Positions 5,311 to 52,128 of a DNA stretch of 52,128 nt are shown here, in pieces (positions within the stretch are counted from its first letter, which is position 1; each line of letters starts with the position of its first letter). The notes under the pieces are model-generated. The model did not search any database. It was not told the DNA's origin and saw only the letters and a list, made by a program, of their open reading frames with translations. The stretch comes from a virus. Its lineage: Duplodnaviria; Caudoviricetes. Where the stretch lies: the IMG/VR virus record IMGVR_UViG_3300034101_005442, positions 1-52,128 of that record. The stretch is one strand, 5' to 3'. Position numbers and translations under genes: made by a program.

Positions 5311-5318
5311 TATACACT
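5311..5318 (-). promoter_or_regulatory. Candidate late promoter motif AGTGTATA
   Basis: 20 nt upstream of the start at 5293; recurrent motif. Confidence 0.5.
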
Positions 5319-6411
5319 ATAAGTACTTCTTTCTCATCACATCATAATTAGCCTTAATTTCATTAGCACTTAAAATTCGATTATATATTTTAGTACTATA
5401 TAAATGACCAAAAACAGAATGGTTTCCACAATGATTAGTATTTCCCGCCAGATTAAAAACTAAAGTTGGATGAGAATAGCTCTGAGTACCACTGTTAGAA
5501 GCCACAAGAACCCCATTCACATACATTAGTAATGTTTGAGTACCTCCAACAATAATTTGCTGAAAAGTATAGTTATATAAAGTATTGATTATATTATTAT
5601 CATAAAACACACTAAGACTAGATGATCCAGCAATATTAAAGAATAGTCTTGAGGTAGTTGCTGTGACGGTATCGAACTGTGTTCTGAGTCCTGTGTAAAG
5701 TGGTCCGTTTGGTCCGTTAAAGCCTCCTTGCTTACTAAATAAACTATATCCAGCTGCTGCTCCACAACTACTATTAACTCCGTAATAACTACTAGCTTTA
5801 TACCACATATCAATAGTCATTAAGTCAGTAAAAGGAACACTATTCACAACATTTTCATAAGCATTGCTATTAGCCCCAGTATATAATAATGCTTTATTGT
5901 CTGAGGATACTCCAGCTCCCACATTAAAATGTCTATTATTACCACTAAGATCATACCATAAATTAGAATTTGGGGTTAATACTTCTTTAATACTTAAATA
6001 ATCAATATCAAAATCTGCTCCAACATTATCAGAAGATATGCTAAAATTACCAGTAGTATTACAAGTAAATGTTCTTGAATATGTTCCAACGGGTAGACTC
6101 ATTCCACCACTAAGACTAGGAGTTGTACTTGGTCCAAAACTAGCACTCGTTGTAAGTCTTCTTGCGCTAATAGTCCAAACCATTTTATATCTTTTTCCAG
6201 CAACAGCCGGAGCTATATTAGAAAAATTAATATAATTTCCCCCGATACTGCTAATTGTTTTAACTTGACCGTCTCCAGGTGTTAACACACTGGCCTCAGT
6301 TACTAGTTCTGGCCCGTAAGAAATTGTGCCAGGATAACTTTTCTCTGTTGTAGAATCTAAATATAATATTAGTCCATCTGTTACTATTTTTGGTCCGTGT
6401 ATTCTGGTCAT
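5317..6411 (-). CDS. LamG/concanavalin A-like domain virion protein
   Basis: PKIVTDGLILYLD N-terminus, WYDLSGN, MYVNGVL and KIYNRILSANEIKANY C-terminus. Confidence 0.8.
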   Translation of the reverse strand: MTRIHGPKIVTDGLILYLDSTTEKSYPGTISYGPELVTEASVLTPGDGQVKTISSIGGNYINFSNIAPAVAGKRYKMVWTISARRLTTSASFGPSTTPSLSGGMSLPVGTYSRTFTCNTTGNFSISSDNVGADFDIDYLSIKEVLTPNSNLWYDLSGNNRHFNVGAGVSSDNKALLYTGANSNAYENVVNSVPFTDLMTIDMWYKASSYYGVNSSCGAAAGYSLFSKQGGFNGPNGPLYTGLRTQFDTVTATTSRLFFNIAGSSSLSVFYDNNIINTLYNYTFQQIIVGGTQTLLMYVNGVLVASNSGTQSYSHPTLVFNLAGNTNHCGNHSVFGHLYSTKIYNRILSANEIKANYDVMRKKYL

Positions 6412-7118
6412 AATCCAAACCTATTTTTAAGAGCGTTATAATTATTTAATACTTCACTAGCTGAAAGAACTTTATTATATACTCTTACTATAGCAATATC
6501 TCCATTATAATAATATCCTCTGCTACCAGCATATCCTCCATAAACTCCTATACTCATACCTCCATTGTTTGTAGCAATAGTTCCTGTTTGAGAGTCACTA
6601 TTTTTTAATATTCCATTAACATATAATTTTCTACTTCCTGTTATGAAAGTACCAACAACTTGAAACCAACTAGATGTATTGATTCCAGCGGCAGCAGTAG
6701 TTGTTGTAATTAATTCATTAAATGTACCAAAATTTTGTCTCCAATATATAGTATTTGATTCTTGAAATAAACTATATTGACTATTAACAGTTCCTTTTTC
6801 AAACCAAAAACCGCTTTGTGTTGTTGCATTTGTTCTTATCCAAACTTCAACTGATGGTGTTTGAGTATCGAGTAGTGTGCTATTTGGTACTCTTATAAGT
6901 CTGTTATTTGTAGTTCCATTAAAACTAAAATATTTATTACTAACAGAACTATTAAGAACCGGCTGAAAAAGACCGGCTGTTCCAAGTTCTCCTATTATAT
7001 TACTAGTACTTATATCATAGCAAGAACTTCCACTACCAGGATAACATTTAATATTTGCAAAATCCATGCAAAATACTAATCCATCAGTAACTATTTTAGG
7101 AGAATAATCTATACTCAT
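6408..7118 (-). CDS. LamG/concanavalin A-like domain virion protein
   Basis: PKIVTDGLVFCMD, SVEVWIR, KLYVNG, GDIAIVRVYNKVLSASEV motifs; paralogue of 5317..6411. Confidence 0.85.
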   Translation of the reverse strand: MSIDYSPKIVTDGLVFCMDFANIKCYPGSGSSCYDISTSNIIGELGTAGLFQPVLNSSVSNKYFSFNGTTNNRLIRVPNSTLLDTQTPSVEVWIRTNATTQSGFWFEKGTVNSQYSLFQESNTIYWRQNFGTFNELITTTTAAAGINTSSWFQVVGTFITGSRKLYVNGILKNSDSQTGTIATNNGGMSIGVYGGYAGSRGYYYNGDIAIVRVYNKVLSASEVLNNYNALKNRFGL

Positions 7119-20033: not shown

Positions 20034-22064
20034 TTATCTATAAATTCCACTATATATATCGTCATTGGCTCCTCCTGTAAACCAATCTGGTCCTCTATAC
20101 ATACTTCCATTGCTTTTATAGGAATCTTTAGCATTTGCTCCAATAACATCATAGTCTATTGGTTTTAATGATCTGTTTAATTGTCTGGCTAGCATATTAG
20201 CTATTAATAGTGAACTATATCGGTCTTTTCTTAGTCGGCCTTTTTTACCTCCTGGTAATTTGGTTTCTGGAGTATCCCATCTGTCTCTAGCATTTGGTCC
20301 TGTGCTAGTTTGCGTCATAACAATAGTTGTTAATTCATTTTTAAGTTCTTCTATTTCTAAAATACATTCACTTAAACTGTCATATAATGGACTTAAGTCC
20401 TCTGTAATTATATCTTTTCCTTCTCTTTCCATTGCTAGTCCTAAAGTTAAATTATCAAAAGATGGAAATAATAAAACCTTGTCTTCAAAATCTTTTCTTA
20501 AACCATGATTTGCTTGACTTGTCCATTCCGCTTTTGCAAACTGAACTAATTCTAATACATGAAGACCTTGTTGATCGTCAGTGTCTTTACTTTTATCTAA
20601 ATCAATAATTGGCCATATTAATTGTTCGCCTTGTTCTATCTTTCCAGGATCATGTAAAGATTCTTCTATAGCAACTCCACCTCCTTGGGCATCCATTCCA
20701 ATTTTTATAGGATGAAAAGTTTTCATTAAATTTCTAATTTTTCTAGCACAAAATCCATAAAAATCATAATCATTAATCAAACCCTTTTTCAGTCTTTCTT
20801 TGAAATTAGTTCTATTCGTTGTCCAGCAATATACAATTTTATTATGCTCAGGATTTACTTCTAATATAACTATACTAAAATTATCTTGTTCACTAGCAGG
20901 GTCAATTCCATAAACATATTGTTTCTTTGGGTCTCCATGAATAGTAGCATCAAACATTAATGGCTTATCATTAATCATAATATTAGTATTAGAGACTACG
21001 CAGCTTTCTATTAAACTACGGCGAAAAAAGCCTTCGCTATCCTTAACAAAACATGCTGCATATTCCATATTATATATACCAGTATGAATAGTAGCTTTAG
21101 CTCTGCTCACCTGTTTATCATCCATGAATCCTTTTGGGATAAGCTCATATGGTATACGAATAATACTATAATCTTTCCAATTAAAATTACTGGGTACTTC
21201 TCCTTTGAAAATGTCAGTTAATTTTTGTTGATCTCCTCTGCTTTCTATAATAGCTTTATATCTTTTCCAATAGCTTGAAAAATGTTTAAAATCATAATCA
21301 GCAGTACCACTAATAATAGCCTGATTACCCATTTTAATATTTAATTCTTCAAGATCGTCATTCCATATACCGGCTTTTATCATAGCTTGCTTGCGAGCCT
21401 GTTCTTTAACATTTTGTATTGGGCTAGCGCTAACAGCAGCGAATCCTGACACAACAGTTTCGTATATGTCTGGAGAGATAGAAGCAAATTCGTCAGCAAT
21501 AATTATATGTGCTCTTAATCCTCTAATTTTACTACCATCACCCATTGGGATAGCTATGGTCCAACTGTCTCCTAATCTCATAGTACATCTATCAACATCT
21601 CGTCGCGGTCCATCATCATTACCACTAAAAATACTACGTAATATAGGACTACTTCTCCAAATAGTTTCCATATATTCGAATATAATTTTACTCTGTCTAA
21701 ATGCTGCGCCAACAACCACTATTTTGGTTCCAGGAAAAAATGCACATCTTAATACAGAATATAGAGCCAATAAAAAACTTTTACCCCAACCACGACTGGC
21801 CACATACATAGGAAAAGATCTTATCCAAAATTCTTGAATAATAGCTATTTGTATAGGATGAAGTTCTATATTAAATAGTAGTTTACATGTTGTTCCAATA
21901 TATTTTGGATTTCTTAAAAGTTTTATTAGATGAAGATCAGGATTTTCTATGTCATCTTGATCCCTATGTATCATAGGATTATCTATTATATTAAGACTAG
22001 ATAAATCTCCTAATCCTAACCAAGCATCATCAAAGTTTGTTAAGATATTTTGACTATTTGACAT
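20034..22064 (-). CDS. terL: Terminase large subunit
   Basis: Walker A ASRGWGKS, KIRGLRA, Walker B IIIADEF, nuclease motifs YGIDPAS, MDAQGGG and KDRYSS. Confidence 0.92.
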   Translation of the reverse strand: MSNSQNILTNFDDAWLGLGDLSSLNIIDNPMIHRDQDDIENPDLHLIKLLRNPKYIGTTCKLLFNIELHPIQIAIIQEFWIRSFPMYVASRGWGKSFLLALYSVLRCAFFPGTKIVVVGAAFRQSKIIFEYMETIWRSSPILRSIFSGNDDGPRRDVDRCTMRLGDSWTIAIPMGDGSKIRGLRAHIIIADEFASISPDIYETVVSGFAAVSASPIQNVKEQARKQAMIKAGIWNDDLEELNIKMGNQAIISGTADYDFKHFSSYWKRYKAIIESRGDQQKLTDIFKGEVPSNFNWKDYSIIRIPYELIPKGFMDDKQVSRAKATIHTGIYNMEYAACFVKDSEGFFRRSLIESCVVSNTNIMINDKPLMFDATIHGDPKKQYVYGIDPASEQDNFSIVILEVNPEHNKIVYCWTTNRTNFKERLKKGLINDYDFYGFCARKIRNLMKTFHPIKIGMDAQGGGVAIEESLHDPGKIEQGEQLIWPIIDLDKSKDTDDQQGLHVLELVQFAKAEWTSQANHGLRKDFEDKVLLFPSFDNLTLGLAMEREGKDIITEDLSPLYDSLSECILEIEELKNELTTIVMTQTSTGPNARDRWDTPETKLPGGKKGRLRKDRYSSLLIANMLARQLNRSLKPIDYDVIGANAKDSYKSNGSMYRGPDWFTGGANDDIYSGIYR

Positions 22065-22620
22065 TTTTTGCTTTAAGCCTGCGAGATGTTTTTATCGCTC
22101 TCTGAACTATCATTTTTGCAACAGTTTCAATAAAAGGTAGATTACGTTTGGTACTTTCTTCTTTTAACCATGCAAGAATAGTTGGCATATTTTGTTCACA
22201 CCACTCATTACCCTTTTCATTCATTTGTAATGCGTGTCGTTTGCAACTACATGTTGGGGTGGTTTTAATTCCCATAGTTGCTATCATGCCAGATAATATG
22301 GATCCTGGACCATCTGGATCAGATTCTAATGTTTTAGGGAAAAGAGATTGTAAAAATGTTTGAGGATCGTCTCCAAGCTTATTTAATAATATATTTTGTA
22401 AATCGTCCATTGTTAAAGTTATAATTCCCATATTATTATTTTCAAATAACATGATAGGCGATGGTATACCGTTAATCTGAGCATATGCGGTATTTGTTAT
22501 TGGTCTAATAATATATGTAATATCTAGTTCTGTATATGTAATTGGCTCTGGTTTCACCACAGTTCCATTAGAAGCTGTATATGGTGGTTGTTGAAGTGTA
22601 ATTTCTTTATTAAGTTTCAT
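22054..22620 (-). CDS. Hypothetical protein with Cys/His motif (TCSCKRH...WC)
   Basis: Likely start MKLN at 22620 with GGAG/AAGG upstream; overlaps both neighbours. Confidence 0.65.
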   Translation of the reverse strand: MKLNKEITLQQPPYTASNGTVVKPEPITYTELDITYIIRPITNTAYAQINGIPSPIMLFENNNMGIITLTMDDLQNILLNKLGDDPQTFLQSLFPKTLESDPDGPGSILSGMIATMGIKTTPTCSCKRHALQMNEKGNEWCEQNMPTILAWLKEESTKRNLPFIETVAKMIVQRAIKTSRRLKAKNVK

Positions 22621-23104
22621 CCTTTTTCTCCTTTTTTTTAACAATTTCTTCTATATAATAGATTTTTTTAAGTATGTACTCTGCCATTTTTTGAGCATTA
22701 GACGAATCGCCACAGAAATATACTATGATATTATGATTAATCTGCAACTCCAAAATATTTTTAATCAAAAAAGCTGGTGTTATTTTAATTTTATCCCACA
22801 TTTTTTTAGGAACACTACTTCCTATAGGATAAATCAACAAATCTTCTAAATCAAATTCCATTAATAAAAAAGCATATTTAATATTTTCTAATCTTGATAT
22901 AACATCTGCAAATCTGCTTTCTACAATATTATTAGCAAATTCACTAGCGCTTTTTTTTCTTTCTATACAAACTATGTTTTCTAATCCTTCTATACTATAA
23001 TCTCCCGTATCTAATTTTCTATTAGCAATAGCATGATGTGGAAAATCCCATGGTTGTTGTTCTCTAGTATCTACAATTATTACAAAATCATTATGATTTA
23101 CCAT
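22610..23104 (-). CDS. ERCC4/XPF-family nuclease
   Basis: IIVDTREQ, LDTGDYSI, IERK motifs (the D-x-RE / GDY / ERK signature). Confidence 0.88.
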   Translation of the reverse strand: MVNHNDFVIIVDTREQQPWDFPHHAIANRKLDTGDYSIEGLENIVCIERKKSASEFANNIVESRFADVISRLENIKYAFLLMEFDLEDLLIYPIGSSVPKKMWDKIKITPAFLIKNILELQINHNIIVYFCGDSSNAQKMAEYILKKIYYIEEIVKKKEKKDET

Positions 23105-23366
23105 GTTTTTTACTCGCTACTATTTTTAAAAATACAGATTCGTATATATCTTCTAATCCTTTAATTAGTTTATGATGATATGAACATAAAGTTATACCAT
23201 TATCAGTATTAAATCTTAAACCAATATTATGTGCCCATGTTTTTATATGATGAGCATTAAGTTTTCTTTTAAGAGTACAATTCGGCCATTGACATTTAAA
23301 ATTATCTCTTTTATATACTTCTTGTCTCCATCGTTTGTAACTAGGATCATTAAAATCTCTATTCAT
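23091..23366 (-). CDS. HNH endonuclease (packaging-associated type)
   Basis: WR..V..RD.F.CQ..C, AHHIK.W, LRF..NGITLC..HH; 91 aa, close to the terminase gene. Confidence 0.9.
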   Translation of the reverse strand: MNRDFNDPSYKRWRQEVYKRDNFKCQWPNCTLKRKLNAHHIKTWAHNIGLRFNTDNGITLCSYHHKLIKGLEDIYESVFLKIVASKKHGKS

Positions 23367-24351
23367 GTCTAGTATTCTCTATATCTGAAAAAACCATATC
23401 TTCTACAAGTTGCTCAAATGATATTTTGGGTTGCCATCCTAAAATATTCTTGGCTTTTGTTGAGTCTCCTCTGCAAAACTCAACCTCCATTGGTCGGTAA
23501 AGATTATGGTCAATTTCTATATGATTCAAATAATTTAAATTAACACATTTAAAAGCATGCTCAAGAAAAGATTCAACAGTGTGAGAGTATCCTGTGCTAA
23601 TAACAAAATCATCAGGATTACCATGAGACAGCATTAACCTCATAGCAAGCACATAATCCTTGGCATGACCCCAATCTCTTACAACTTTAATATTTCCTAA
23701 TTTTAATTTTTCAGTTGTTTTTTTGTTAACTAGTTGGCCTATATACTTAGTAATTTTTCTAGTAACAAAATTTTCTCCGCGTCGTGGACTTTCGTGATTA
23801 AATAAAATACCACTAGTAGCATATAGCCCATAAGCTTCTCTGTATATTTGTATCATCCTATGACTAGATAATTTAGAAACAGCATATGGACTTTGTGGTA
23901 AAAATCCAGTATTTTCGTTTTGGTATTTTTCTCCATCATCATTTAAAATATAATTAGATCCAAACATTTCGCTTGTACTAGCTTGATAAAATCTAGTTGT
24001 TGATGAAAACTTTCTAATATTTTCTAATATATTAATTACTCCAATTGTATTAATTTCAAATGTTGTTGTTGGTTGTTTGAAGCTTGTAGCAACATGACTT
24101 TGTGCTGCCAAATTGTAAAAATGATGTGGTCTGTGTTTAGTTATAATGTCAACACAATCTGAAGGATCAGTAATATCAAATTCTTGCAATATTAATTTTT
24201 TATTATCAAGTAAATGTTTAATCCTTTGGAAATTAGAGTTACTGCTTCTTCTATATAATCCTACAATATTATATCCACTATTTATTAATAGTTCAGCTAA
24301 ATAACTTCCGTCCTGTCCAGTTATTCCTGTTATGGCTGCTGTTTTAGTCAT
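23359..24351 (-). CDS. gmd: GDP-mannose 4,6-dehydratase
   Basis: ITGITGQDGSYLAE, YNLAAQSHV, FYQASTSEMFG, SPYAVSK, GILFNHESPRRG.FVTRKIT and RDWGHAKDYV, all hallmark Gmd motifs. Confidence 0.97.
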   Translation of the reverse strand: MTKTAAITGITGQDGSYLAELLINSGYNIVGLYRRSSNSNFQRIKHLLDNKKLILQEFDITDPSDCVDIITKHRPHHFYNLAAQSHVATSFKQPTTTFEINTIGVINILENIRKFSSTTRFYQASTSEMFGSNYILNDDGEKYQNENTGFLPQSPYAVSKLSSHRMIQIYREAYGLYATSGILFNHESPRRGENFVTRKITKYIGQLVNKKTTEKLKLGNIKVVRDWGHAKDYVLAMRLMLSHGNPDDFVISTGYSHTVESFLEHAFKCVNLNYLNHIEIDHNLYRPMEVEFCRGDSTKAKNILGWQPKISFEQLVEDMVFSDIENTRHE

Positions 24352-25160
24352 TGTATACTATCTGGTGTTAAAAATGGTTGATCTATAATACCATCTTGAT
24401 ATTGATGATATTCTTCTAATTTCTTTTTATTTTTTTCTGTTGCGATAGAGAGTATCTCCATTTCTCTACCTTCTTTTTCTCTGATGGTTTCGTCTTCTAA
24501 CATACGTATTAATCCTATCCAAGAACTTTTACCATCTTCTATTCTTTTTATTCTTTGCTCTCTGGTAGCTTTAAGGTCCTTGCTAATTTTTTGTTGTTCA
24601 TTTAATAATTTAGTATATTCATTTGTATAATTTGCTATGCTATTTCTTGCAAAACTTAATTGTGTCTCTAAGTTGGCTAATCTTGGTATATCTCTTTGAT
24701 CTTCTGGTTTTTCATATTCTTTGTCTACTAATTGTTGTAATTTATCAGTTTCGGCAATGTGTCTTTTTCTTTCTTTCATACTGCGATTAATAAGAATATC
24801 TATAGTGATAAATTGTTTAATCTGAAGTTCTTCTGCTGGTAAAACGTCTTCCCTAAACTGCTGGATTAGACCTATCCATGTATCTTCAAAATATGCTAAT
24901 TCTCCAGTATCACTATCAAATTGTCTAGTAATTTCGTGCCAAAAAGTTTTTGTATGTAATTTCCTTTTTAGTATCTCAAGGTCTTTAGCGTTCTCACTAG
25001 CTGTTATATTATTTTCTTTTATATATCTATTTATAGGATCAATATTTCTATTTAGATTTTCAGCTATTTCCTCAACAGATAGAACTATAATATTTTCTCT
25101 TATAAATTTTTCTTCTTCTAGACTTAGTTGTCCTCGTTTTTTGGGAATATTTCTTGACAT
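24348..25160 (-). CDS. Helical protein with N-terminal HTH-like segment and coiled coil; candidate terminase small subunit
   Basis: LS.EE..FI..N..LSVEEIAE.LNR N-terminus followed by a long coiled coil; upstream of terL in the same operon. The function is inference only. Confidence 0.45.
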   Translation of the reverse strand: MSRNIPKKRGQLSLEEEKFIRENIIVLSVEEIAENLNRNIDPINRYIKENNITASENAKDLEILKRKLHTKTFWHEITRQFDSDTGELAYFEDTWIGLIQQFREDVLPAEELQIKQFITIDILINRSMKERKRHIAETDKLQQLVDKEYEKPEDQRDIPRLANLETQLSFARNSIANYTNEYTKLLNEQQKISKDLKATREQRIKRIEDGKSSWIGLIRMLEDETIREKEGREMEILSIATEKNKKKLEEYHQYQDGIIDQPFLTPDSIQ

Positions 25161-25762
25161 TTATCCTCTCCTATTATTAGCTCTATATGACTTTGTAATT
25201 TTTTAAGTTGCTGTTTAGGAATTTTTTCTCCGTGCTTAAGTCTTAAATAGCTTTCTCTAAATTCTGGTTCTATATTTTCGTCTAATAATTTTATTATCTC
25301 ATTATTCTGCATTTTAGAGTCAAAATTTTTATTATTACTAATATCATACTCTATATACGATGGTTGCATAATATTCTTTTTGGCAATATTTCGAGTTGCC
25401 CATGTGGAATATAAATCACAATCATCTTTGTTTGCATATTTAGAACATTGATTTTTTGAGACTTTATAGTTAGGATCGTATAGTGGACATGATAAACAAG
25501 GAATATCTGGTCTTTGATAGTTATTTCTTTTGTAATTAAACAATCTGTTTCTTACATGCGTCCATAAGAAATTTTCTAATGGTCTTGTATTATCATATTT
25601 TTCTAAACCTTCCAAAGCAAAAATAGCCGCTTGCTGTTTCATATCTTCAATATCGTGATATCCAAAACGAAATTTATGGGCTAGTCTTTTGCCTATATTA
25701 TCTAATACTCTTAAAAAATCTTCTTCTGAAACTTTATTATCTATTTTTTTCTTTTTGCTCAT
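25124..25762 (-). CDS. Phage-encoded RNA polymerase sigma-70-family factor (candidate late sigma)
   Basis: Region-2-like DIEDMKQQAAIFALEGLEKYD..LENFLWTHVRNRLFNYKR, followed by a four-Cys insert. Confidence 0.75.
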   Translation of the reverse strand: MSKKKKIDNKVSEEDFLRVLDNIGKRLAHKFRFGYHDIEDMKQQAAIFALEGLEKYDNTRPLENFLWTHVRNRLFNYKRNNYQRPDIPCLSCPLYDPNYKVSKNQCSKYANKDDCDLYSTWATRNIAKKNIMQPSYIEYDISNNKNFDSKMQNNEIIKLLDENIEPEFRESYLRLKHGEKIPKQQLKKLQSHIELIIGEDKCQEIFPKNEDN

Positions 25763-33468: not shown

Positions 33469-35109
33469 TTATGGCACAATTGTAAAATCAATAATATTTC
33501 CTAATGTATAACAACATTCTATTGGGGGTGAACTACTGGACGGAGTAGGAGTGCAAGTAGGAGTATAAGTAGGAGTAGGAGTAGGAGAAGCACCAATACT
33601 TTTAGATGGAGTTGGGGTTAGGGCTGTAGTGCTAGTTGGAGTTGCGGTCGGAGTACGAGTTGGAGTACGAGTTGGAGTAGCAGATGCATTTGGATTGGGA
33701 GTTGGTAAATTTGGTATTAAATTATCACACATACTGCCGCCAGCACTAAATAAATATGAATCATAATAATTGTATCCATCAAGTATTACAATAAAGTTAT
33801 CTGATGCTTCAAATATATAAGGAACAGCTGAAGTTCCATTAAGTCTATTTTTGGATCCTAATAATTCTACCCAGCCGCTAACATAATCTGTTCCGGGAAT
33901 AGTAATAAAATTAGTTAATTGAGTACTATTTAATAGTGTGCCATTAACTTTAATGCTAGATAACGCATTCTGTTTAATGCCAATGAGAGCATAATACTTT
34001 GGATTATCTGTTTCTACAAGCTGACCAATCTCATTATATTGGGCACTCGTATAAGGCAATGGAGGAAGCGCTATAACATATCTTTTTGATAAATTATTAA
34101 ATGGAAAAACAGCATTCATCGACGGATCACCAATTCTATTGGTACCTATGCCTCTTTTACATTGATATACAAATATTGGATATGTTGCTGTAATCATAGT
34201 TGGACTGGTTACGGATAATTTTTCATAAGTTTGATATTTTCCTAAAGTTATTGATGTACCATTTATAGAAATAGTATTATTATTGTCTACAGATAAAATC
34301 TTAAAAGCATCTCCGGTACGAACAACTAGGTCATATCCTAATATATCAGATACTTTCTCAAGATTATATCCTATAATATTATTATAGTTTTGAGTTAATG
34401 GTAAAATAAAAGTTTTATCAAAATATTCATATCCATATATTTGACAAATTTGAGAATTACACGCACCTACCCAATTATAACAGAAACTATCTGTAAAAAC
34501 AGCTATCTTTTCTGTGCTCTCTATTTTAAATACTGGTCCCGGCAATAACTTTCCATTATTATCCCTTTCTCCTGAATTTCTATGTTTTAGCGTTTGTAAA
34601 TTTTGTAATGTGTATGTTTTTTTTACATTATTATTTAAATTAGTAATTGTAATAATATTATTGTTCGAAGTACTAACTATATTAATGTTCGAAGCTGCAT
34701 AATAGCCTTGTGAAAAGAATGGACATATATAATGTAATCTAGATAATTGCTCTATTGGTAATAGTCCTGTTCCATTACAAGCATGGACACGACGGAATAA
34801 ATAGTGGCATGTGATAGTTTTATCTGCTACTATTTTTATTCCTTTATTATCTGGTATCAATAATTCAGAATTAGAGATACTAAGTTGTTTCTGGCTAGGA
34901 AAGTTATAAGATGCTAAATTATTAGAATCTATAGTTACTGTATATGTTTCTCCAAGATATTGAATGGATACCACTGTTCCTGGTTCTCCAAGAAAGTATA
35001 AATAATCTGGATTAACTCCTCCAACAGTGTCTGGAATAACAAAATAAAACTCTTTACTTAAACAAGTGTCTGGCTGTGATTGAGTTTGTATATTATTTGA
35101 AACTTCCAT
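33469..35109 (-). CDS. IgGFc-binding-domain-like protein with Pro/Thr linker
   Basis: KGIKIVADK.I, GTGLLPIEQL..Y, I.AT.PI.VYQ..GDPSM..V.P, DGY..YDSY.F.AG match the IgGFc_binding pattern as I recall it. Confidence 0.7.
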   Translation of the reverse strand: MEVSNNIQTQSQPDTCLSKEFYFVIPDTVGGVNPDYLYFLGEPGTVVSIQYLGETYTVTIDSNNLASYNFPSQKQLSISNSELLIPDNKGIKIVADKTITCHYLFRRVHACNGTGLLPIEQLSRLHYICPFFSQGYYAASNINIVSTSNNNIITITNLNNNVKKTYTLQNLQTLKHRNSGERDNNGKLLPGPVFKIESTEKIAVFTDSFCYNWVGACNSQICQIYGYEYFDKTFILPLTQNYNNIIGYNLEKVSDILGYDLVVRTGDAFKILSVDNNNTISINGTSITLGKYQTYEKLSVTSPTMITATYPIFVYQCKRGIGTNRIGDPSMNAVFPFNNLSKRYVIALPPLPYTSAQYNEIGQLVETDNPKYYALIGIKQNALSSIKVNGTLLNSTQLTNFITIPGTDYVSGWVELLGSKNRLNGTSAVPYIFEASDNFIVILDGYNYYDSYLFSAGGSMCDNLIPNLPTPNPNASATPTRTPTRTPTATPTSTTALTPTPSKSIGASPTPTPTYTPTCTPTPSSSSPPIECCYTLGNIIDFTIVP

Positions 35110-45180: not shown

Positions 45181-46278
45181 TTAGGGTACGTTAAATATTG
45201 TTGGATTAATATTATAAGAACGAGTTGGTGTTGGCGTTGATAATGATCTTGTTTTTGTTGGCGTTGGTGTTGATGTGGATACTGATTTTGTCTTGGTGGG
45301 AGTAGGAGTTACAGATGGTGCTCGTGTTTTTGTTGGAGTTGGTGTTGGAGCTCTTGTGGAGGTTACACTAGGAGTTGGAGTAGGATTACAACAATTTTCA
45401 GCAGCTTTTTTAGCTTGAGTACAATTTATTACTGTTGCTGATGTTATTCTCATACTAGTATAAGGATTGCCCATACCAGGATTAAAAGGAATACTGTTAC
45501 TAATTGGAACTCTGAGAATCCATGAAACTTGAGTACTATTATTAGCGTATGAATCCTTAAAAGTATATTCAATATAATCTTGTCCATTAATAGTAACACA
45601 TTTTCCACCAACTAAGATTATAGCATGTTTAGTTTTTAATAGATTAGTACAATTTTCTTTTATTTTTGGTCTTACCCATTTTGGTGGCATAGTATAAATA
45701 TACGGAGGAGAACCAGTTATTGTTCCGTCTTGTACACTCTTAAGCCAATCTTCAAAGTTTGGTGGAAAAACAGCAGTATCCAAATCGCTCATTATGGGGC
45801 CAGTAGAGCATAAACTATCAACTAAATTTTTTTGATTTCTGTATGATGTTGAATTAACTTTATAGTTTATAGTAACATAACATTGACGAGGATCACAAGG
45901 ATCACTATATGTTTTTCCTGGACATTTAACGGGAACTTTAAGTCCGGATCGTCCTGAATTTGCAAAAAACGCAAAAGTTTTAAATGCATTTGTTGCTCTG
46001 TTGATAAAATCAGTTTTTTCTGTACTAGATCCTTTTCCGTATTTACAATCTGCTAATGTATTAATATATGTTATTCCATTAGCGGGCATTGGCATACTAT
46101 TGATCTTTGTTTGATTACACGCTATAATAGCATTATAATCTATATTAATAGCACAAGAAGCTGCTAATGATTGCAATAACGTATTGGTCATGCAAGTTAA
46201 TTGATCAACACCTTCCTTTTTTTGGTTAATATCTAATGGTATCTGATGTAAACAGTTTTTAATATTATTACATGGCAT
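45181..46278 (-). CDS. Papain-like (C1) cysteine protease with Pro/Thr tail
   Basis: DQLTCMTN (candidate catalytic Cys), GPIM, HAIILVGG (His) and YTFKDSY (compare papain HAV.xVG..KNSW). Confidence 0.6.
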   Translation of the reverse strand: MPCNNIKNCLHQIPLDINQKKEGVDQLTCMTNTLLQSLAASCAINIDYNAIIACNQTKINSMPMPANGITYINTLADCKYGKGSSTEKTDFINRATNAFKTFAFFANSGRSGLKVPVKCPGKTYSDPCDPRQCYVTINYKVNSTSYRNQKNLVDSLCSTGPIMSDLDTAVFPPNFEDWLKSVQDGTITGSPPYIYTMPPKWVRPKIKENCTNLLKTKHAIILVGGKCVTINGQDYIEYTFKDSYANNSTQVSWILRVPISNSIPFNPGMGNPYTSMRITSATVINCTQAKKAAENCCNPTPTPSVTSTRAPTPTPTKTRAPSVTPTPTKTKSVSTSTPTPTKTRSLSTPTPTRSYNINPTIFNVP

Positions 46279-46571: not shown

Positions 46572-46579
46572 AGTACACC
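46572..46579 (-). promoter_or_regulatory. Candidate late promoter motif GGTGTACT
   Basis: 43 nt upstream of 46531. Confidence 0.55.
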
Positions 46580-47967
46580 TATGATTTCTTTTTGTTTTTT
46601 GATTTTGATATGTGATCACAGGTATACATATTATGCTTAGTATTTTGTATTACAAATCCATTTTCAGGATATCTATAAGTTGTTGTTAATGGACTTTCTG
46701 ATGCTCCAGGAATTATTTCTTCATATCCAAAATGGGTTAACATTTTAATACTTAATGGAGTAATAACTTGTTGTATGTCTGGATCAAAATATGGAACCAT
46801 AAGATCATTACCTATTCCTGGTAATATCTGACTTTTAGGACACATTCCGTCGGCAGGAATATCAGAACATGCTCCAGGTCTCCATGGATATTTACATTCA
46901 CAAGGTTTACTATATTGTATAGGGAAAGAATACCACGACCAGTGTGCTCCAATTACTGTTTGTAATGGAACTGGTCTTAATGAATATGCTGGATCATAGG
47001 ATATTCTACCAGCTGACTCATAGATACTACCCATTCCAGGATAATAATCAGTATTTAAAGAACTAGCGTCATACCATTCATATGCTCCAATTTTAATATA
47101 AGGTTCTGTATTTACTGTATTAGTATCAGTATACTCAGGATCCCAATAGAATCCTATTCCTAAACCATGACCTAGCTCATGTAGCATCACTCCTTCCCAT
47201 TCGGCTTGTGTATAATCATTTTGATAATGAGTATTAATATATAAGTCTATGGATGTTGTATTCCATCTTAAATAAGGAGCAGACGAACTTAATTGTTTAT
47301 GAGCTGATATTCCACAAGCAGCAATTGCTCCATGTAAATCTGTTCCTTGTAAATTATCAATATAAATTGCATTAATTGTGATACCTTTCCAGTTTGATCC
47401 TAACTCAGATCGTATGCTAGCAATTACGCTATTATTCATTCGTAGGAATTTTGACCATCTATTACATGCGTTGACAAGAGGAGTTAAATATGGTGCTGGA
47501 ACTCCTGTTCCTATAGGTACTCCGTTTTTATTTAGTCTGGGTACTGATGAAAAAGAATCAGTATCAAATAGTTTCACATTATTTTCTACTAGCCATGTTA
47601 CTTCAGAAGAGGTAGAAGTCCAATTATAAACATATGATATTCCTGTAGATTGTTCAGTATAGTATGTTGTTAATTCCAATCGACATCTAAATTTTCTTCC
47701 ACTTTTGGCTAGTGTTGATTTGCTGGTAATGAAAGTATCTGTTAAAGAAGCTCTTTTACCCGCATAATCTTTAGGATTTAAATTTCTAGTATCTTTAGTT
47801 ATGTCTCTAACAATTGTCCATGATGATGATCCTGGAAGTTGTCGTTCCCATAGGTATCGAGCTGTCCAAGTTGTTCCTAGAATTCGTCCTGTGATCGTAG
47901 AAACAAATGTTGCTTTAATACCTTCTTTAAGAGTTACAGATGATGGTAAAACAGTATTATTTATCAT
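46579..47967 (-). CDS. Ig-like domain plus leishmanolysin-like (metzincin) zinc metalloprotease
   Basis: HELGHGLGIG (HExxH), downstream GAHW (third ligand), DLMVPY Met-turn, IT.LSI..L..GY. Confidence 0.8.
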   Translation of the reverse strand: MINNTVLPSSVTLKEGIKATFVSTITGRILGTTWTARYLWERQLPGSSSWTIVRDITKDTRNLNPKDYAGKRASLTDTFITSKSTLAKSGRKFRCRLELTTYYTEQSTGISYVYNWTSTSSEVTWLVENNVKLFDTDSFSSVPRLNKNGVPIGTGVPAPYLTPLVNACNRWSKFLRMNNSVIASIRSELGSNWKGITINAIYIDNLQGTDLHGAIAACGISAHKQLSSSAPYLRWNTTSIDLYINTHYQNDYTQAEWEGVMLHELGHGLGIGFYWDPEYTDTNTVNTEPYIKIGAYEWYDASSLNTDYYPGMGSIYESAGRISYDPAYSLRPVPLQTVIGAHWSWYSFPIQYSKPCECKYPWRPGACSDIPADGMCPKSQILPGIGNDLMVPYFDPDIQQVITPLSIKMLTHFGYEEIIPGASESPLTTTYRYPENGFVIQNTKHNMYTCDHISKSKNKKKS

Positions 47968-49010: not shown

Positions 49011-49232
49011 ATTATAAATGAAAATGTGTTGCTGTTAGGCTCTTGTCTCTTGGGAATAGAAACACAAGATCTAGAAACATGATAAATAATGGGGTAAATA
49101 GGGGAGTTTAGGTGATACATTTTGATTTATTGAGTGCTTATTGTGTTTGGATGTCCTTGGGGTTTTGAGAAAAATCTGGAAATGATCGATAAAAACAGAA
49201 AAACCCCCTCTTATGTTTTACGGTTATTCTAC

Positions 49233-49410
49233 CCCGCAAATTTGACGTAAAGCCTTACGAGATAATGACTTACAACGAGGGAGCATAGCAAATGGTGTGC
49301 CAAAGAATAATATATTTTATGGTATGGTATTTGCTCATGAAAAAAATCTCAAAAAAAACATTTGTACACTATTGACGCCTAAAGAATCTTTGGTATAATG
49401 TCGATATAAG
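49233..49410 (+). repeat. Regulatory cassette copy 1 (left-truncated)
   Basis: One 11-7-11 palindrome (49246-49274); sigma-54 sites at 49287-49302 (minus strand, TGGCACACCATTTGCT) and 49320-49335 (plus); TTGACG 49372 / TATAAT 49394; TAAA-N16-GTCGATAT. Confidence 0.85.
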
Positions 49411-49445
49411 AAGTAAGAGAGAAAAAGAAAAAAAAGGAAAAGAAC

Positions 49446-49613
49446 ATGACATACTTCATTCAGATTTTCGATGCTTGGGATTGTGAGTTGGATTTCATCG
49501 GCCCGTTCAACACTGAGAACGAAGCACATGAGGCCGGTTGGAGCAAGTGGGAAGGTGACGATAACGCCTATGGTAGCCGAATCATCAAAAGGCTTCCCGC
49601 TTCGACTCACTGA
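49446..49613 (+). CDS. 55-aa acidic protein (not in ORF track), paralogue of 50214..50378
   Basis: MTYFIQIFDAWDCELDFIGPFNTENEAHEAGWSKWEGDDNAYGSRIIKRLPASTH; AAGGAA RBS; downstream of the cassette promoter. Confidence 0.85.
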   Translation: MTYFIQIFDAWDCELDFIGPFNTENEAHEAGWSKWEGDDNAYGSRIIKRLPASTH

Positions 49614-49624
49614 AAAATATTCTC

Positions 49625-49660
49625 TAAGGGCTTGACGAACGATTGCCGATAACGTACACT
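49625..49660 (+). promoter_or_regulatory. Overlapping sigma-70 and sigma-28-like promoter
   Basis: TTGACG(49632)-N17-TACACT(49655), with TAAG(49625)-N16-GCCGATAA(49645). Confidence 0.7.
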
Positions 49661-49690
49661 AGAATCATCACAAGGAAAAAGGAAAGAATC

Positions 49691-49933
49691 ATGAGCAACG
49701 ATTTTATCTACGACATGAGCGAAATCAACGAAGAGAACATGTTCAAGGCTTGGGAAGAAATGGTAGCCGAAGATGGTAGCATCTGGGAAACGGGATACGA
49801 TGATGATACCGATTACATTCCGGGCCTTGACGATGGCGAAGGATACGACCCGATCATGGGCGATGGCGAAGGATTCGATGAAACGGACGATGGATGGCTG
49901 GACGATTTCCAGGGCGAAGAGGATTTTGCCTAG
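49691..49933 (+). CDS. 80-aa extremely acidic protein (candidate DNA mimic)
   Basis: Start re-called to ATG 49691 after AAGGAA; 29 D/E against 1 K and 0 R; internal DGEG(Y/F)D repeat. Confidence 0.8.
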   Translation: MSNDFIYDMSEINEENMFKAWEEMVAEDGSIWETGYDDDTDYIPGLDDGEGYDPIMGDGEGFDETDDGWLDDFQGEEDFA

Positions 49934-49942
49934 GGGATACAT

Positions 49943-50183
49943 CCCCCACTAGGGGGAAAGGCTTGACGTAAACCCTTGCTACATAAGCACTTACGTCAAA
50001 TTTTCGGCCGAAAAATCGTCGTAAACCCTTATGCCACAACGACTTACATCAAATGCCCACAGCAAATGCTATGCCGAAAATAATATATTCTATGGTATGA
50101 TATTTGCTGAACATAACCTTACGATATTGTAAGGAAACTTTTTTGTTGACGATTCAAGATACCATGGTATAATGTCGATATAA
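49943..50183 (+). repeat. Regulatory cassette copy 2 (complete)
   Basis: CCCCCACTAGGGGG; palindromes at 49967 and 50020; TTTTCGGCCGAAAA; sigma-54 sites 50061-50076 (minus) and 50093-50108 (plus); CCTTAC-N6-GTAAGG 50117-50134; TTGACG 50146 / TATAAT 50168; TCAA-N16-GTCGATAT. Confidence 0.9.
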
Positions 50184-50213
50184 AGAGAAAAGGAAAAGAA
50201 AAAGGAAAATAAA

Positions 50214-50378
50214 ATGACATACTTTGCTCAAATCGTAGACGCTTGGGATTGTGAACTAGACTTCCTTGGCCCATTCTATACTGAGGAACAGGCGACCGCC
50301 GCCGCTTTCGACAAGTGGGACGGTGAGGATGGATGTAGGGTAAATATCATCAAAAGACTTCCGGCTTTTTCTCACTGA
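50214..50378 (+). CDS. 54-aa acidic protein (not in ORF track), paralogue of 49446..49613
   Basis: MTYFAQIVDAWDCELDFLGPFYTEEQATAAAFDKWDGEDGCRVNIIKRLPAFSH; many synonymous differences from the paralogue show it is coding. Confidence 0.85.
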   Translation: MTYFAQIVDAWDCELDFLGPFYTEEQATAAAFDKWDGEDGCRVNIIKRLPAFSH

Positions 50379-50398
50379 AAAAATATTTTCTAGTGGGG

Positions 50399-50426
50399 TT
50401 GACGTAGGATTGCCGATAAGTATACT
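50399..50426 (+). promoter_or_regulatory. Sigma-70 promoter with embedded GCCGATAA
   Basis: TTGACG(50399)-N16-TATACT(50421); GCCGATAA at 50412; homologous to the 49625 promoter, but the sigma-28 -35 element is poor. Confidence 0.65.
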
Positions 50427-50443
50427 AGGGAAAAGGAAAAGAA

Positions 50444-50638
50444 ATGACACTGAATACAGAAATCTCGACGAGTTATGATGGTAAGCGGTATACGGGCTTG
50501 GTTGTGGAAATCAAGATGGTACAGAATCGTGAGTTGATCACGATCATGATTGAAGATGATTCGCGGAATGATGGCATAGGGTATCGTAGCCTTTATGCCG
50601 ATAAGATGAGCGAAACATCCGAAAACCTTTTCGCATAA
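50444..50638 (+). CDS. 64-aa small beta-barrel-like (SH3/Sm-like) protein, paralogue of 51209..51406
   Basis: Shared Y..G..(Y/F)TG..V.....L.TI...GYRS.Y.DK; AAGGAA RBS. The fold is inference. Confidence 0.75.
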   Translation: MTLNTEISTSYDGKRYTGLVVEIKMVQNRELITIMIEDDSRNDGIGYRSLYADKMSETSENLFA

Positions 50639-50646
50639 GGAAAAAA

Positions 50647-50967
50647 ATGAATAGTTTTGCAAGATTAAATCGTATTGGAATGGAATCGAATGCTACTAAA
50701 AATAAGGTAAGATACTTGCGTGAAAAATATAATCTTGGATATGATATGCAACCCAAGGAAAAAACAATGTCCGTTTCCGAAATGATTTGCAAACTAGAAT
50801 CCCATGGATTGATCGTGCAGCGGTTGGAGCACGATAATGGTACGCTACACGTTGACGGCTATCATCCTCCCCATTGTAAGGGGCTGCCCGATTGGCTGTA
50901 TGATTGCCCCGGTTGGGGGGTATCGTCATGCGGGGCTTCTAGGGTTTTCATGTTCAAGGTGGGCTAA
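50647..50967 (+). CDS. Hypothetical protein (possible second start at MSVSEM, 50767)
   Basis: AAGGAAAA RBS precedes both ATG 50647 and the in-frame ATG 50767. Confidence 0.6.
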   Translation: MNSFARLNRIGMESNATKNKVRYLREKYNLGYDMQPKEKTMSVSEMICKLESHGLIVQRLEHDNGTLHVDGYHPPHCKGLPDWLYDCPGWGVSSCGASRVFMFKVG

Positions 50968-51188
50968 CCCCCCACTAGGGGTACACACTCGACGTAAACC
51001 CTTGCTGTATAAGCACTTACGTCAAATTTTCGGCCGCAAAATCGTCGTAAACCCTTATGGCATAACGACTTACGACGAATCGACATAGCAAACGATATGC
51101 CAAAGAATAATATATTCTCTGAAAAAAATAAAAAAAATAAAAGATTTTGCTTGCAACCTAAAGATGAGCCTGTATAATGCCGATATAG
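50968..51188 (+). repeat. Regulatory cassette copy 3 (plus-strand sigma-54 arm replaced by A-tracts)
   Basis: Palindromes at 50993 and 51046; sigma-54 site 51087-51102 (minus, TGGCATATCGTTTGCT); TTGCAA 51151 / TATAAT 51173; TAAA(51159)-N16-GCCGATAT(51179). Confidence 0.9.
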
Positions 51189-51208
51189 AAAGAACAGGAG
51201 AAAGAAAA

Positions 51209-51406
51209 ATGGAAATGAAAATCGGAAACGTTGCCAAGGTCGAATATGCTACGGGTGAGAAGTTTACGGGTGAAATCGTAAAGGTTCGCACCATGTCCGA
51301 CAATCGTATTCTGTTCACGATCCACGATGAAACCGTAGGGTATCGTTCGATGTATACCGACAAGTGTGTGTCTCTGGAAACGCTGGAACTACAGCCCCTT
51401 GATTGA
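51209..51406 (+). CDS. 65-aa small beta-barrel-like protein, paralogue of 50444..50638
   Basis: Start re-called to ATG 51209 after AGGAG; FTGEIV..LFTI..GYRSMYTDK. Confidence 0.8.
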   Translation: MEMKIGNVAKVEYATGEKFTGEIVKVRTMSDNRILFTIHDETVGYRSMYTDKCVSLETLELQPLD

Positions 51407-51411
51407 GGGGG

Positions 51412-51440
51412 TTGTGCCTATAAAAAAAGTTTGCTACACT
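51412..51440 (+). promoter_or_regulatory. Sigma-70-like promoter
   Basis: TTGTGC-N17-TACACT upstream of ATG 51473. Confidence 0.5.
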
Positions 51441-51472
51441 ACATCATCATCCCAACCCATAGGAAAACAACA

Positions 51473-51799
51473 ATGACCACTAGCCCTATCCTTCGTGAGT
51501 TTCGCCGCGGCATCATCAACTGGTTTGAGGGTATCGCAATCCCTCACCAGCCTAGCGTTGCCGATGGTGTGTATACGCCGATTCGCAGCGAAAAGGTGAT
51601 GAAGTTCAATCGTAAGGCTCTCCGCCAAATCGGAAAGGCTAAGGCTGAAAAGGTTGATCCCCGCTATAGTGGGGGTGATGATCGTATGATCGTAAAGGTT
51701 GGAAAGCCCGGCTCGGCTGAACGTAAGGCAGCATTAGCAGAACAGTATGCCGCTATTCTCGCCTGCGGAGAGGAAGTATCCCCCTTTTCGGAGGGGTAA
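51473..51799 (+). CDS. 108-aa basic hypothetical protein
   Basis: Start re-called to ATG 51473 after AGGAAAA; ends just before cassette copy 4. Confidence 0.75.
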   Translation: MTTSPILREFRRGIINWFEGIAIPHQPSVADGVYTPIRSEKVMKFNRKALRQIGKAKAEKVDPRYSGGDDRMIVKVGKPGSAERKAALAEQYAAILACGEEVSPFSEG

Positions 51800-51808
51800 G
51801 GGTATATA

Positions 51809-52050
51809 CCCCCATTAGTGGCACACACTTGACGTAAACCCTTGCTGCATAAGCACTTACGTCAAATTTTCGGCCGCAAAATCGTCGTAAACCCTTACTG
51901 TATAAGCACTTACGTCGAATGACTATAGCAAACGATATGCCGAAGAATAACTTATTCTATGGTATAATATTTGCTCTAGGAAACCTTACGATATTGTAAG
52001 TTTTTTTTTGCTTGCAATCTAAAGAATGGTCTGTATAATGTCGATAGATA
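51809..52050 (+). repeat. Regulatory cassette copy 4 (complete)
   Basis: Palindromes at 51833 and 51886; sigma-54 sites 51927-51942 (minus) and 51960-51975 (plus); CCTTACGATATTGTAAG at 51984; TTGCAA 52012 / TATAAT 52034; TAAA-N16-GTCGATAG. Confidence 0.9.
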
Positions 52051-52072
52051 AGAAAGAAAGAGAGAAAGAGAA

Positions 52073-52128
52073 ATGAACAGCCTCGATAAGATTCTGGCAT
52101 CTATGCGGTCTGGCAAGTATGGTAGCGT
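52073..52128 (+). CDS. Hypothetical protein, 5' end (runs off window)
   Basis: MNSLDKILASMRSGKYGS..., following cassette copy 4 and a purine-only leader. Confidence 0.65.
   Translation, partial: MNSLDKILASMRSGKYGS

Follow-up and report, generated by a model that had tools for sequence, protein, structure and literature searches.

A family of phage promoter cassettes carrying sigma-70, sigma-54-type and sigma-28-type motifs between shuffled small genes

Lytic phages are thought to start transcription from sigma-70 promoters, or with polymerases or sigma factors of their own. The host-takeover regions of large lytic phages such as SPO1 and T5 flank the late or structural block on one side and hold many strong sigma-70 promoters placed close together, which drive short genes of unknown function; we know of no sigma-54 or sigma-28 elements in these clusters. 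This work concerns an array of four composite promoter cassettes alternating with small ORFan genes, at 49,200-52,128 of the uncultivated virus record IMGVR_UViG_3300034101_005442 (Caudoviricetes). The whole record was analysed and is called the window (52,128 bases; estimated completeness 34%); the array runs off its end. The cassettes combine a strong ordinary promoter with sigma-54-type and sigma-28-type signals, which would be unusual for a lytic phage, and in a limited literature search no account of sigma-54 or sigma-28 promoters from lytic phage early regions came to light.

The PeSL cassettes of T4-like phages are, like the units described here, small combinations of a terminator and an early promoter repeated between small variable ORFan genes, and both are common to several phages. 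PeSL cassettes lie at the borders of inserted, deleted or swapped genes, as the present units probably do. PeSL cassettes shuffle genes (PMC4122927), and the cargo of the present array behaves likewise. The units differ from PeSL in being 3-5 times longer and in carrying additional sigma-54-type sites in either direction, GTAAG/CTTAC palindromes and a sigma-28-like pair. Furthermore, the phage is not T4-like, its large terminase (TerL) being at best 26% identical to Bacillus siphophage terminases, and recombination at its cassettes is suggested by mosaicism.

Two bacterial systems are also comparable. In the sigma-54/sigma-70 system of the GlrR type one gene has both types of promoter, with activator sites upstream and a bend region, a plan that the cassettes would share, with candidate activator sites. 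The promoters of the present cassettes, however, are in tandem, 75-120 base pairs (bp) apart and non-overlapping, and they stand in a phage before protein-coding cargo. The palindrome TGTC-N10-GACA, which is the published GlrR/QseF site, is found singly, centred near -61, in relatives and is absent from the window, whereas PMC3045617 places three sites more than 100 bp upstream; the match is therefore a lead and not an identification. Flagellar sigma-28 promoters have the consensus TAAAGTTT-n11-GCCGATAA (PMC2859248). Both halves recur here, the -10 half as a nearly invariant CGATA(A/T), but the spacer has 1-2 more nucleotides (nt), the majority of copies interdigitate with a sigma-70 promoter, and a sigma factor encoded by the phage itself could be what reads the element.

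Anatomy of the four cassettes

The units were read directly, and aligned and located by script. The four align with a mean column identity of 75% and end at the start codons 49446, 50214, 51209 and 52073, with one or two small open reading frames (ORFs) between units. An earlier note on this DNA had described four such repeats in a fixed order of elements, and both points are borne out; the length of 180-240 bp given there is too short, since complete units measure 241-280 bp. The order is a G/C hairpin, palindromes, a minus-strand GG-N10-GC motif, a plus-strand GG-N10-GC motif, sigma-70 hexamers with an overlapping motif pair, and a purine-rich leader.

Units 2-4 open with the hairpin directly after the preceding stop codon (C5/G5 at 49943-49956 on the plus strand, C6/G4 at 50968-50981, and GGGTATATACCC at 51800-51811), whereas unit 1, for which the hairpin had also been claimed, has a C5 run only. 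The palindromes that follow, here called PAL-C, each consist of TTGACGTAA or TCGTCGTAA arms flanking a 19-nt core. The expected two copies are found in units 2-4 (49963-49999 and 50016-50052; 50989-51025 and 51042-51078; 51829-51865 and 51882-51918), with left arms exactly 53 bp apart (49965/50018, 50991/51044, 51831/51884), while unit 1 has a single GTAAG/CTTAC palindrome (49242-49278). In unit 2 the two palindromes and a central CGGCCG together form a 90-bp imperfect palindrome (49963-50052).

In all four units the minus-strand GG-N10-GC motif begins 43 bp after the anchor of the last palindrome; the constant distance of 41 bp reported earlier was counted from another anchor. These left-pointing sigma-54-type -24/-12 sites lie at 49287-49302 (TGGCAC-N5-TTGCT), 50061-50076 and 51927-51942 (both CGGCAT-N5-TTGCT) and 51087-51102. 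Right-pointing sites occur, as described, in units 1, 2 and 4 (49320-49335, reading TGGTAT-N5-TTGCT, 50093-50108 and 51960-51975, all on the plus strand), and unit 3 has none. Across the whole window TGGYAY-N5-TTGCW has five matches against 0.28 expected, a number (at least five) reached in none of 100 shuffles; all seven looser -24/-12 matches fall within 49287-51975 and none in 1-49000. The sequence GTATAATGYCGATA occurs four times against 0.04 expected, so that both counts greatly exceed chance. In units 2 and 4 the sigma-54-type sites are followed by the hairpin CCTTACGATATTGTAAGG and a T-run (HP module, CCTTACG..TGTAAGG; 50117-50144 and 51984-52011, plus strand), and in units 1 and 3 by an A-rich stretch instead. 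The predicted sigma-54 start of unit 2 (about 50119) would be inside the 5' arm of the HP hairpin.

The sigma-70 promoters, all on the plus strand, consist of TTGACG or TTGCAA, 16 nt and TATAAT. The two TTGACG copies (unit 1, 49372-49399; unit 2, 50146-50173) have a TG extension, and the TTGCAA copies are those of units 3 (51151-51178) and 4 (52012-52039). The four sites match the RpoD consensus at 10-11 of 12 positions, in agreement with the earlier reading, and two more sites reach 9-10 of 12. In every unit the hexamers are overlapped by the sigma-28-like pair T(A/C)AA-N16-G(T/C)CGATA, also on the plus strand, and followed by the purine-rich leader, exactly as had been noted: 49380-49406 (TAAA-N16-GTCGATA), 50154-50180, 51159-51185 (TAAA-N16-GCCGATA) and 52020-52046. 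The resemblance to the FliA/SigD consensus that had been claimed for the pair is right for both halves in all four units and not for the spacer, which equals n12-n13 rather than n11.

Two small plus-strand promoters inside gene blocks come in addition to the elements already listed in that note. The first, TTGACG-17-TACACT (49632-49660), contains GCCGATAA within the spacer, preceded at a distance of 16 nt by CTAAG; the second, TTGACG-16-TATACT (50399-50426), likewise has GCCGATAA in the spacer. A -10-like TATAAG occurs downstream of the promoter; it might conceivably be a pause signal for sigma-70, with a site of the Q-binding type in the spacer, as is known from lambda. The leader of the messenger RNA, (A)TAAGAAGTAAGAGAGAAAG..., is conserved behind every promoter type, in the window and in relatives; its conservation whatever promoter precedes it suggests a function of its own, either in translation or by binding a protein.

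The motifs in related phages

Relatives were sought in IMG/VR with a 17-mer spanning the -10 region and GTCGATATAA. At least 119 stretches share the module; in many of them 2-4 copies follow one another at intervals of about 1 kb, and the contigs reach 238 kb. The family includes complete genomes of 153-238 kb. Most loci were thus found through a motif of the cassette itself, and a control set was formed of 34 loci without the 17-mer, found through another anchor. A 21-mer from the palindrome region matched no other viral contig, and no cultured relative of the array was detected by DNA match in 50,697 phage records. The -24/-12 motif and TAAAG...GNCGATA are conserved far above their flanks in homologous cassettes, each in one geometry.

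For the -24/-12 motif the geometry is a spacer of five. In 1.11 Mb of family loci, N5 gives 235 distinct sites against 1-7 for each of N2-N4 and N6-N9; the swapped order gives 11 sites, and 20 block shuffles give 1-9. In the control set 41 sites have N5, against 1-3 at other spacers. Altogether 233 distinct strict sites were counted in 1.42 Mb. The family motif agrees with the sigma-54 consensus as given in PMC12316311. The characteristic GG and GC, 10 nt apart in TGGCAC-N5-TTGCW, are present in window and family. Out of 116 non-redundant cassettes (up to 260 nt upstream) 80 carry the strict motif, 29 pointing right only, 32 left only and 19 in both directions. Measured upstream from the -10 hexamer, the start of a site is 73-74 or 119-120 nt away if it points right and 101-102 nt away if it points left. 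The sites sit in arrays: all of those in the window are in its array, and of the 14 sites of the complete relative G006, 11 are in its high-GC array.

Sigma-54 promoters start transcription about 12 nt downstream of the GC, and their enhancer sites usually lie 80-150 bp upstream, often with a bend or an IHF site in between. Ten distinct promoters of relatives have a -24/-12 motif only (TTGGCAC-N5-TTGC) and no sigma-70 hexamers. Behind them the leader ATAAGAAAGAGAG, the same as after sigma-70 promoters, begins 12-14 nt past the GC, at the expected +1. Each of these ten promoters is preceded by an A-tract and a 12-mer repeated three times; in one phage (L121) the three-fold repeat is a different one. 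Two of the repeats alone, used as a query in IMG/VR, returned 55 stretches. In 32 of 34 distinct complete instances NGG[CT]A[CT]-N7-GC follows 62-93 nt further downstream, where the background is 0.065 per 170 nt. In this repeat-anchored set the GG and GC are invariant and TGGCAC nearly so, while the two bases before GC vary (TT, GT, TC, AT). Three repeats, an A-tract, a -24/-12 motif and a leader at +1 make up the standard anatomy of an enhancer-dependent promoter, and from the sequences we conclude that the phages of this family probably use promoters of the sigma-54 type. The window lacks the three-repeat enhancer motif, and its seven sites are, by sequence, weaker matches of the same motif class.

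Stand-alone promoters of the enhancer type were seen in L025, L058, L062, L064, L076, L088, L103, L108, L115, L121 and at least 20 of L235-L277. They precede a gene of about 45-49 amino acids (aa), which in L076 and G006 is followed by a homologue of the window gene 51473-51799. A different arrangement is found in L042 (four copies), L010 and L012, where a sigma-54-type motif is followed after 5-6 nt by the hairpin CTGCCATTTTGGCAG, the whole being repeated several times within about 2 kb; these hairpin repeats could be small RNA genes or operators.

The sigma-28-type pair also has a geometry of its own. The pattern T[AC]AAG-Nk-G[ACT]CGATA[AT] is found at 128 sites with k=15 and 167 with k=16, against 0-3 for any other k from 10 to 20 and none in shuffles; part of this peak is due to the way in which the loci were found, and in the control set there are 48 pairs against 0-1 at other spacers. 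Two promoter classes can be distinguished. In the first, to which the four units of the window belong, GNCGATA directly follows TATAAT; in the second, that of the two small promoters, it follows the -35 hexamer within the sigma-70 spacer. Between the classes the sigma-70 hexamers shift by about 21 bp relative to the pair, and the pair keeps its own spacing, with the upstream AAG at its offset in 72 of 84 non-redundant promoters of the first class and 31 of 58 of the second. No sigma-70 pair scoring at least 9 of 12 accompanies 83 of the 352 distinct pairs. Some of these 83 have perfect halves, TAAAGTTT-N12-GCCGATAA with variable G+C-rich spacers, and precede the same gene in five phages. Stand-alone copies of the form TAAAGTTT-N12-G[CT]CGATAA were observed before a conserved gene starting MIQWIG in L241, L249, L253, L266 and G006 (L225), and in L045, L073 and L256.

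The palindromes GTAAG...CTTAC are conserved in sequence, with 262 distinct sites in 239 upstream regions. They are enriched in cassettes with the sigma-54-type motif: they occur in 46 of 54 cassettes that have a right-pointing site and in 106 of 168 that do not, and in 58 of 67 that have a left-pointing site and 94 of 155 that do not (odds ratio 3.4-4.2). The HP hairpin, CCTTACG..TGTAAGG, is likewise conserved in sequence and contains a CTTAC half-site. RNA of the window palindromes folds better from the minus strand (-48.7, -42.2 and -37.0 kcal/mol for 49934-50050, 50960-51076 and 51800-51916) than from the plus strand (-30.6, -30.5 and -28.8 kcal/mol for the same segments), and a minus-strand RNA would start at the predicted +1 of the left-pointing site. 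A structured non-coding RNA made from this site was considered and is not supported, as only 31 of 76 sites of the family fold better on that strand. Hairpins held by covariation are not supported either: the palindromes have conserved half-sites, frequent mismatches and no consistent G-U bias on either strand. A search of Rfam gave no match at E values up to 1. Given the lack of covariation and of a family-wide strand bias, recognition by a protein, as enhancer or operator, seems likelier than an RNA structure.

In relatives such as L007, L011, L035 and L039 the palindrome TGTC-N10-GACA (TTGTCAA-N6-TTGACA) is strongly tied to the left-pointing motif, which accompanies it in 31 of 37 cassettes against 36 of 185; in 36 of 37 cases having the motif the two are 24-26 nt apart. 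TGTC-N10-GACA never shares a cassette with the CCTTACG hairpin (0 of 222). Candidate enhancers in the family are thus the three-fold 12-mer repeat, the GTAAG/CTTAC palindromes and TGTC-N10-GACA.

Proposed use of the cassettes and alternatives

These observations are probably best explained by mosaic early cassettes in which sigma-70, sigma-54-type and sigma-28-type promoters are combined. Anatomy, selection on motif and spacing throughout the family, stand-alone use of the motifs and shuffling of cargo can be read from the genomes, and from them we infer which protein would bind each element, and when. The G/C hairpin and the GTAAG/CTTAC palindromes would end or insulate the transcript arriving from the left, after which the composite promoter region would restart transcription for the next one or two small ORFan genes. 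The near-consensus sigma-70 promoter would allow immediate transcription by host RNA polymerase. The one or two -24/-12 sites, 75-120 bp further upstream, would be true binding sites and promoters for host sigma-54 holoenzyme, directed to the right, to the left or both ways, and the palindromes, centred in the window at about -84 and -137 from the right-pointing site, would occupy the usual positions of enhancers. The element T(A/C)AAG-N15/16-GNCGATA(A/T), interleaved with the sigma-70 hexamers, would be read by a sigma-28-type holoenzyme, and every promoter type would feed the one GA-rich leader.

Sigma-54 depends on an activator driven by ATP, and its use is linked to signals of the host, for example nitrogen status, envelope stress and flagella. 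Ten related records, seven of them estimated complete, were searched for sigma-54 DNA-binding and activator domains (PF00158, PF14532, PF02954, PF04552), and none was found. Weak Sigma54_activat and Sigma54_activ_2 matches in ORFs of 296-301 aa of G007, G008 and G009 (L278, L279, L224) were rejected as activators: of the two ORFs read, that of G008 is RuvB by Pfam (RuvB_N, E value 5e-44) and that of G009 is closely alike. As the ten phage records lack such a domain, either the host would have to supply the activator or it would belong to a kind not yet described.

Further steps are put forward with more reserve. It is conceivable that a widespread family of large lytic phages wires its early genes to three holoenzymes and carries its own sigma-54 enhancers. 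The three kinds of upstream site could then, tentatively, serve to capture enhancer-binding proteins of the host or a novel activator, and the left-pointing sites might, somewhat speculatively, give an activator-timed antisense control of the preceding early gene. If true, no lytic phage would have been described before with an enhancer-dependent programme of sigma-54 transcription. Should the sites work, early expression of the phage would read the physiology of the host, for instance its motility through sigma-54 and sigma-28, and a phage without an activator gene would have to borrow or replace one. The cassettes in any event offer sequence handles with which to find the early regions of the family, to identify its host and to test how genes are moved between phages by promoter cassettes.

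Several points besides the missing activator weigh against reading the cassettes as promoters for three holoenzymes. The match of the window sites to the RpoN consensus, which the earlier note had asserted, is strict in spacing and imperfect in bases, with right-pointing sites reading TGGTAT instead of TGGCAC and two left-pointing ones starting CGG, so that these sites fall short of the consensus in strength. Left-pointing sites look towards the 3' end of the gene before them and have no ORF to express. The palindromes show no compensatory changes and, by the counts given above, are also common in cassettes without a right-pointing or a left-pointing site. Little more than half of the spacer-class promoters keep the upstream AAG, and the spacer of the pair exceeds that of the E. 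coli sigma-28 consensus. Finally, as most loci were found through a cassette motif and the cassettes are kin by descent, the counts of distinct sites are not counts of independent events.

A portable promoter for three holoenzymes had been proposed from the sequence of the window, and the selection on the motifs and their stand-alone use agree with this; what is less secure is the third holoenzyme, as a sigma factor of the phage may replace host FliA. The window encodes a divergent sigma-70-family factor of 212 aa on the minus strand (25124-25762; Sigma70_r2 23.2 bits, slightly below the cut-off; sigma factor by PHROG), and a homologue is found in ten of ten related records, adjoining the array in G001 and G006. 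With this gene in every record, either host FliA/SigD or the phage sigma could be the reader of the pair. In T4, early and middle promoters stand in tandem. An alternative which we hold to be unlikely is that only the sigma-70 promoter is read by the host and that the pair is the promoter of the phage's own sigma, for a middle mode after host sigma-70 has been shut off. Apart from the sigma gene, the longer spacer fits this proposal, and so do the stand-alone pairs that precede genes on the early-strand side but outside the array; both halves, however, match the FliA consensus, with TAAAGTTT in many copies, the phage sigma resembles FliA in nothing beyond region 2 and has no PDB relative by sequence, and no copy of the pair was found before the structural genes of the window, which would be the usual target of a phage sigma.

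In the absence of an activator, sigma-54 holoenzyme stays bound as a closed complex. The -24/-12 sites might accordingly bind it without acting as promoters, in the role of a roadblock or insulator between cassettes, as a damper of the sigma-70 promoter that overlaps or adjoins them, or as the sponge of the earlier note, titrating sigma-54 away from host genes. This would account for phage records without an activator gene and for left-pointing sites that express nothing and in relatives often abut a terminator hairpin, and paired sites would be too close for joint occupancy. We nevertheless regard it as improbable, given that in relatives complete enhancer-type promoters replace the sigma-70 promoter before genes, which by their sequence implies that the motif drives mRNAs in this family. 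That -24/-12 and GNCGATA are operators of a phage regulator or RNA signals for processing, stability or termination, resembling sigma sites by chance, is very improbable: paired left and right motifs do form an inverted repeat, palindromes overlap the predicted sigma-54 starts (HP; CTGCCATTTTGGCAG in L042) and those of the window fold better as minus-strand RNA, but the full sigma-54 consensus with its strict N5 and invariant GG and GC, the frequency of unpaired single copies (61 of 80), the distance of the leader, which fits a sigma-54 start, the position of GNCGATA upstream of the conserved leader and hence outside the RNA of the main class, and the negative Rfam and strand-bias results all speak against it.

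Cargo genes and genomic setting

The interpretation given in the earlier note is partly supported; its core, promoter cassettes with signals for three kinds of holoenzyme that move genes, is borne out by the comparison of relatives as far as sequence can show. Cargo genes recur in other phages in other orders and with other cassettes upstream, and the matches end near the edges of genes or cassettes. As part of the explanation preferred above, the cassettes are probably the shared homology at which phages swap cargo genes; the idea of a gene-swapping substrate holds as far as the shuffling itself is concerned, and recombination would be deduced from mosaicism.

All cargo ORFs lie on the plus strand, and their proteins match no Pfam or PHROG family. 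Behind unit 1 are an ORF of 55 aa (49446-49613) and an acidic one of 80 aa (49691-49933). The former is a paralogue of the 54-aa ORF behind unit 2 (50214-50378), gene pairs within the array being paralogous. Unit 2 is further followed by two ORFs, one coding for 64 aa (50444-50638) and the other for 106 aa (50647-50967). The last has 93.6% DNA identity to a gene of L029 placed elsewhere in its array, where it follows a cassette like unit 3; the copy in the window precedes one. Unit 3 is followed by an ORF of 65 aa (51209-51406) and by one of 108 aa (51473-51799), which is the most widely shared cargo gene, with 71-81% DNA identity in at least 25 loci. Behind unit 4 only the start of the next ORF is present before the record ends (52073-52128); it has a homologue in G006, where, in the re-oriented array, it is the third of the ORFs listed after the first cassette (start 2909).

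The close relative L006 (92% identity), found through the neighbouring structural gene for a 462-aa protein, keeps the layout of the window and differs in modules and cargo. Its plus-strand site is a perfect TGGCACGATATTTGCT, and a cassette is joined directly to a relative of the second gene of the window. The complete genome G006 (161 kb) shares structural genes at about 40-70% amino-acid identity, and its matching high-GC array, about 9 kb long, contains eight such promoters. G001 (238 kb) carries its cassettes at 112.8-117.6 kb, directly after the switch from minus- to plus-strand genes.

A similar switch is seen in the window, where all 30 ORFs of at least 150 aa are on the minus strand between 189 and 47,967, and the plausible genes beyond 49,000 are all small and on the plus strand. 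The array is thus located at the point of divergence between the structural block and an early-type region, and, as a component of the same favoured explanation, it is probably where the early region of a large uncultivated lytic phage begins, a region of the host-takeover type. The G+C content is 0.26-0.42 up to 49,000 and 0.41-0.44 from there on, the step where the array begins being one from about 0.29-0.38; in G006 (first 10 kb and last 5 kb) the array stands at 0.43-0.45 and other parts at 0.30-0.38.

The minus-strand genes include those for tail-fibre-like and other structural proteins, TerL (20034-22064), an ERCC4-type nuclease (22610-23104) and a GDP-mannose 4,6-dehydratase (23359-24351; E value 5e-112); the major structural ORFs are without a PHROG match. 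As to the host, the clues besides the terminase are few. The dehydratase is 43-49% identical to genes from many phyla, and no tRNA genes were found. A protein of the HU/IHF family (Bac_DNA_binding, E value 4e-28) is encoded on the plus strand of the relative L076 (2851-3150), about 800 bp downstream of a sigma-54-only promoter, and the gene is present in this one of five records searched. Its look-alikes are IHF-alpha clusters, mostly of Pseudomonadota (score 0.90), which as a host clue is a lead only.

Other observations concern minus-strand proteins of the window. A protein of 365 aa (45181-46278) has a long C-terminal Pro/Thr-rich repeat linker (TPTPTK-like), and the one of 462 aa (46579-47967) a zinc-protease-like HELGH motif; both are without a Pfam family. 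Laminin_G_3 (concanavalin-like) domains occur in two adjacent proteins (5317-7118) and an IgGFc_binding domain in a protein of 546 aa (33469-35109), and these are probably tail or receptor-binding parts.

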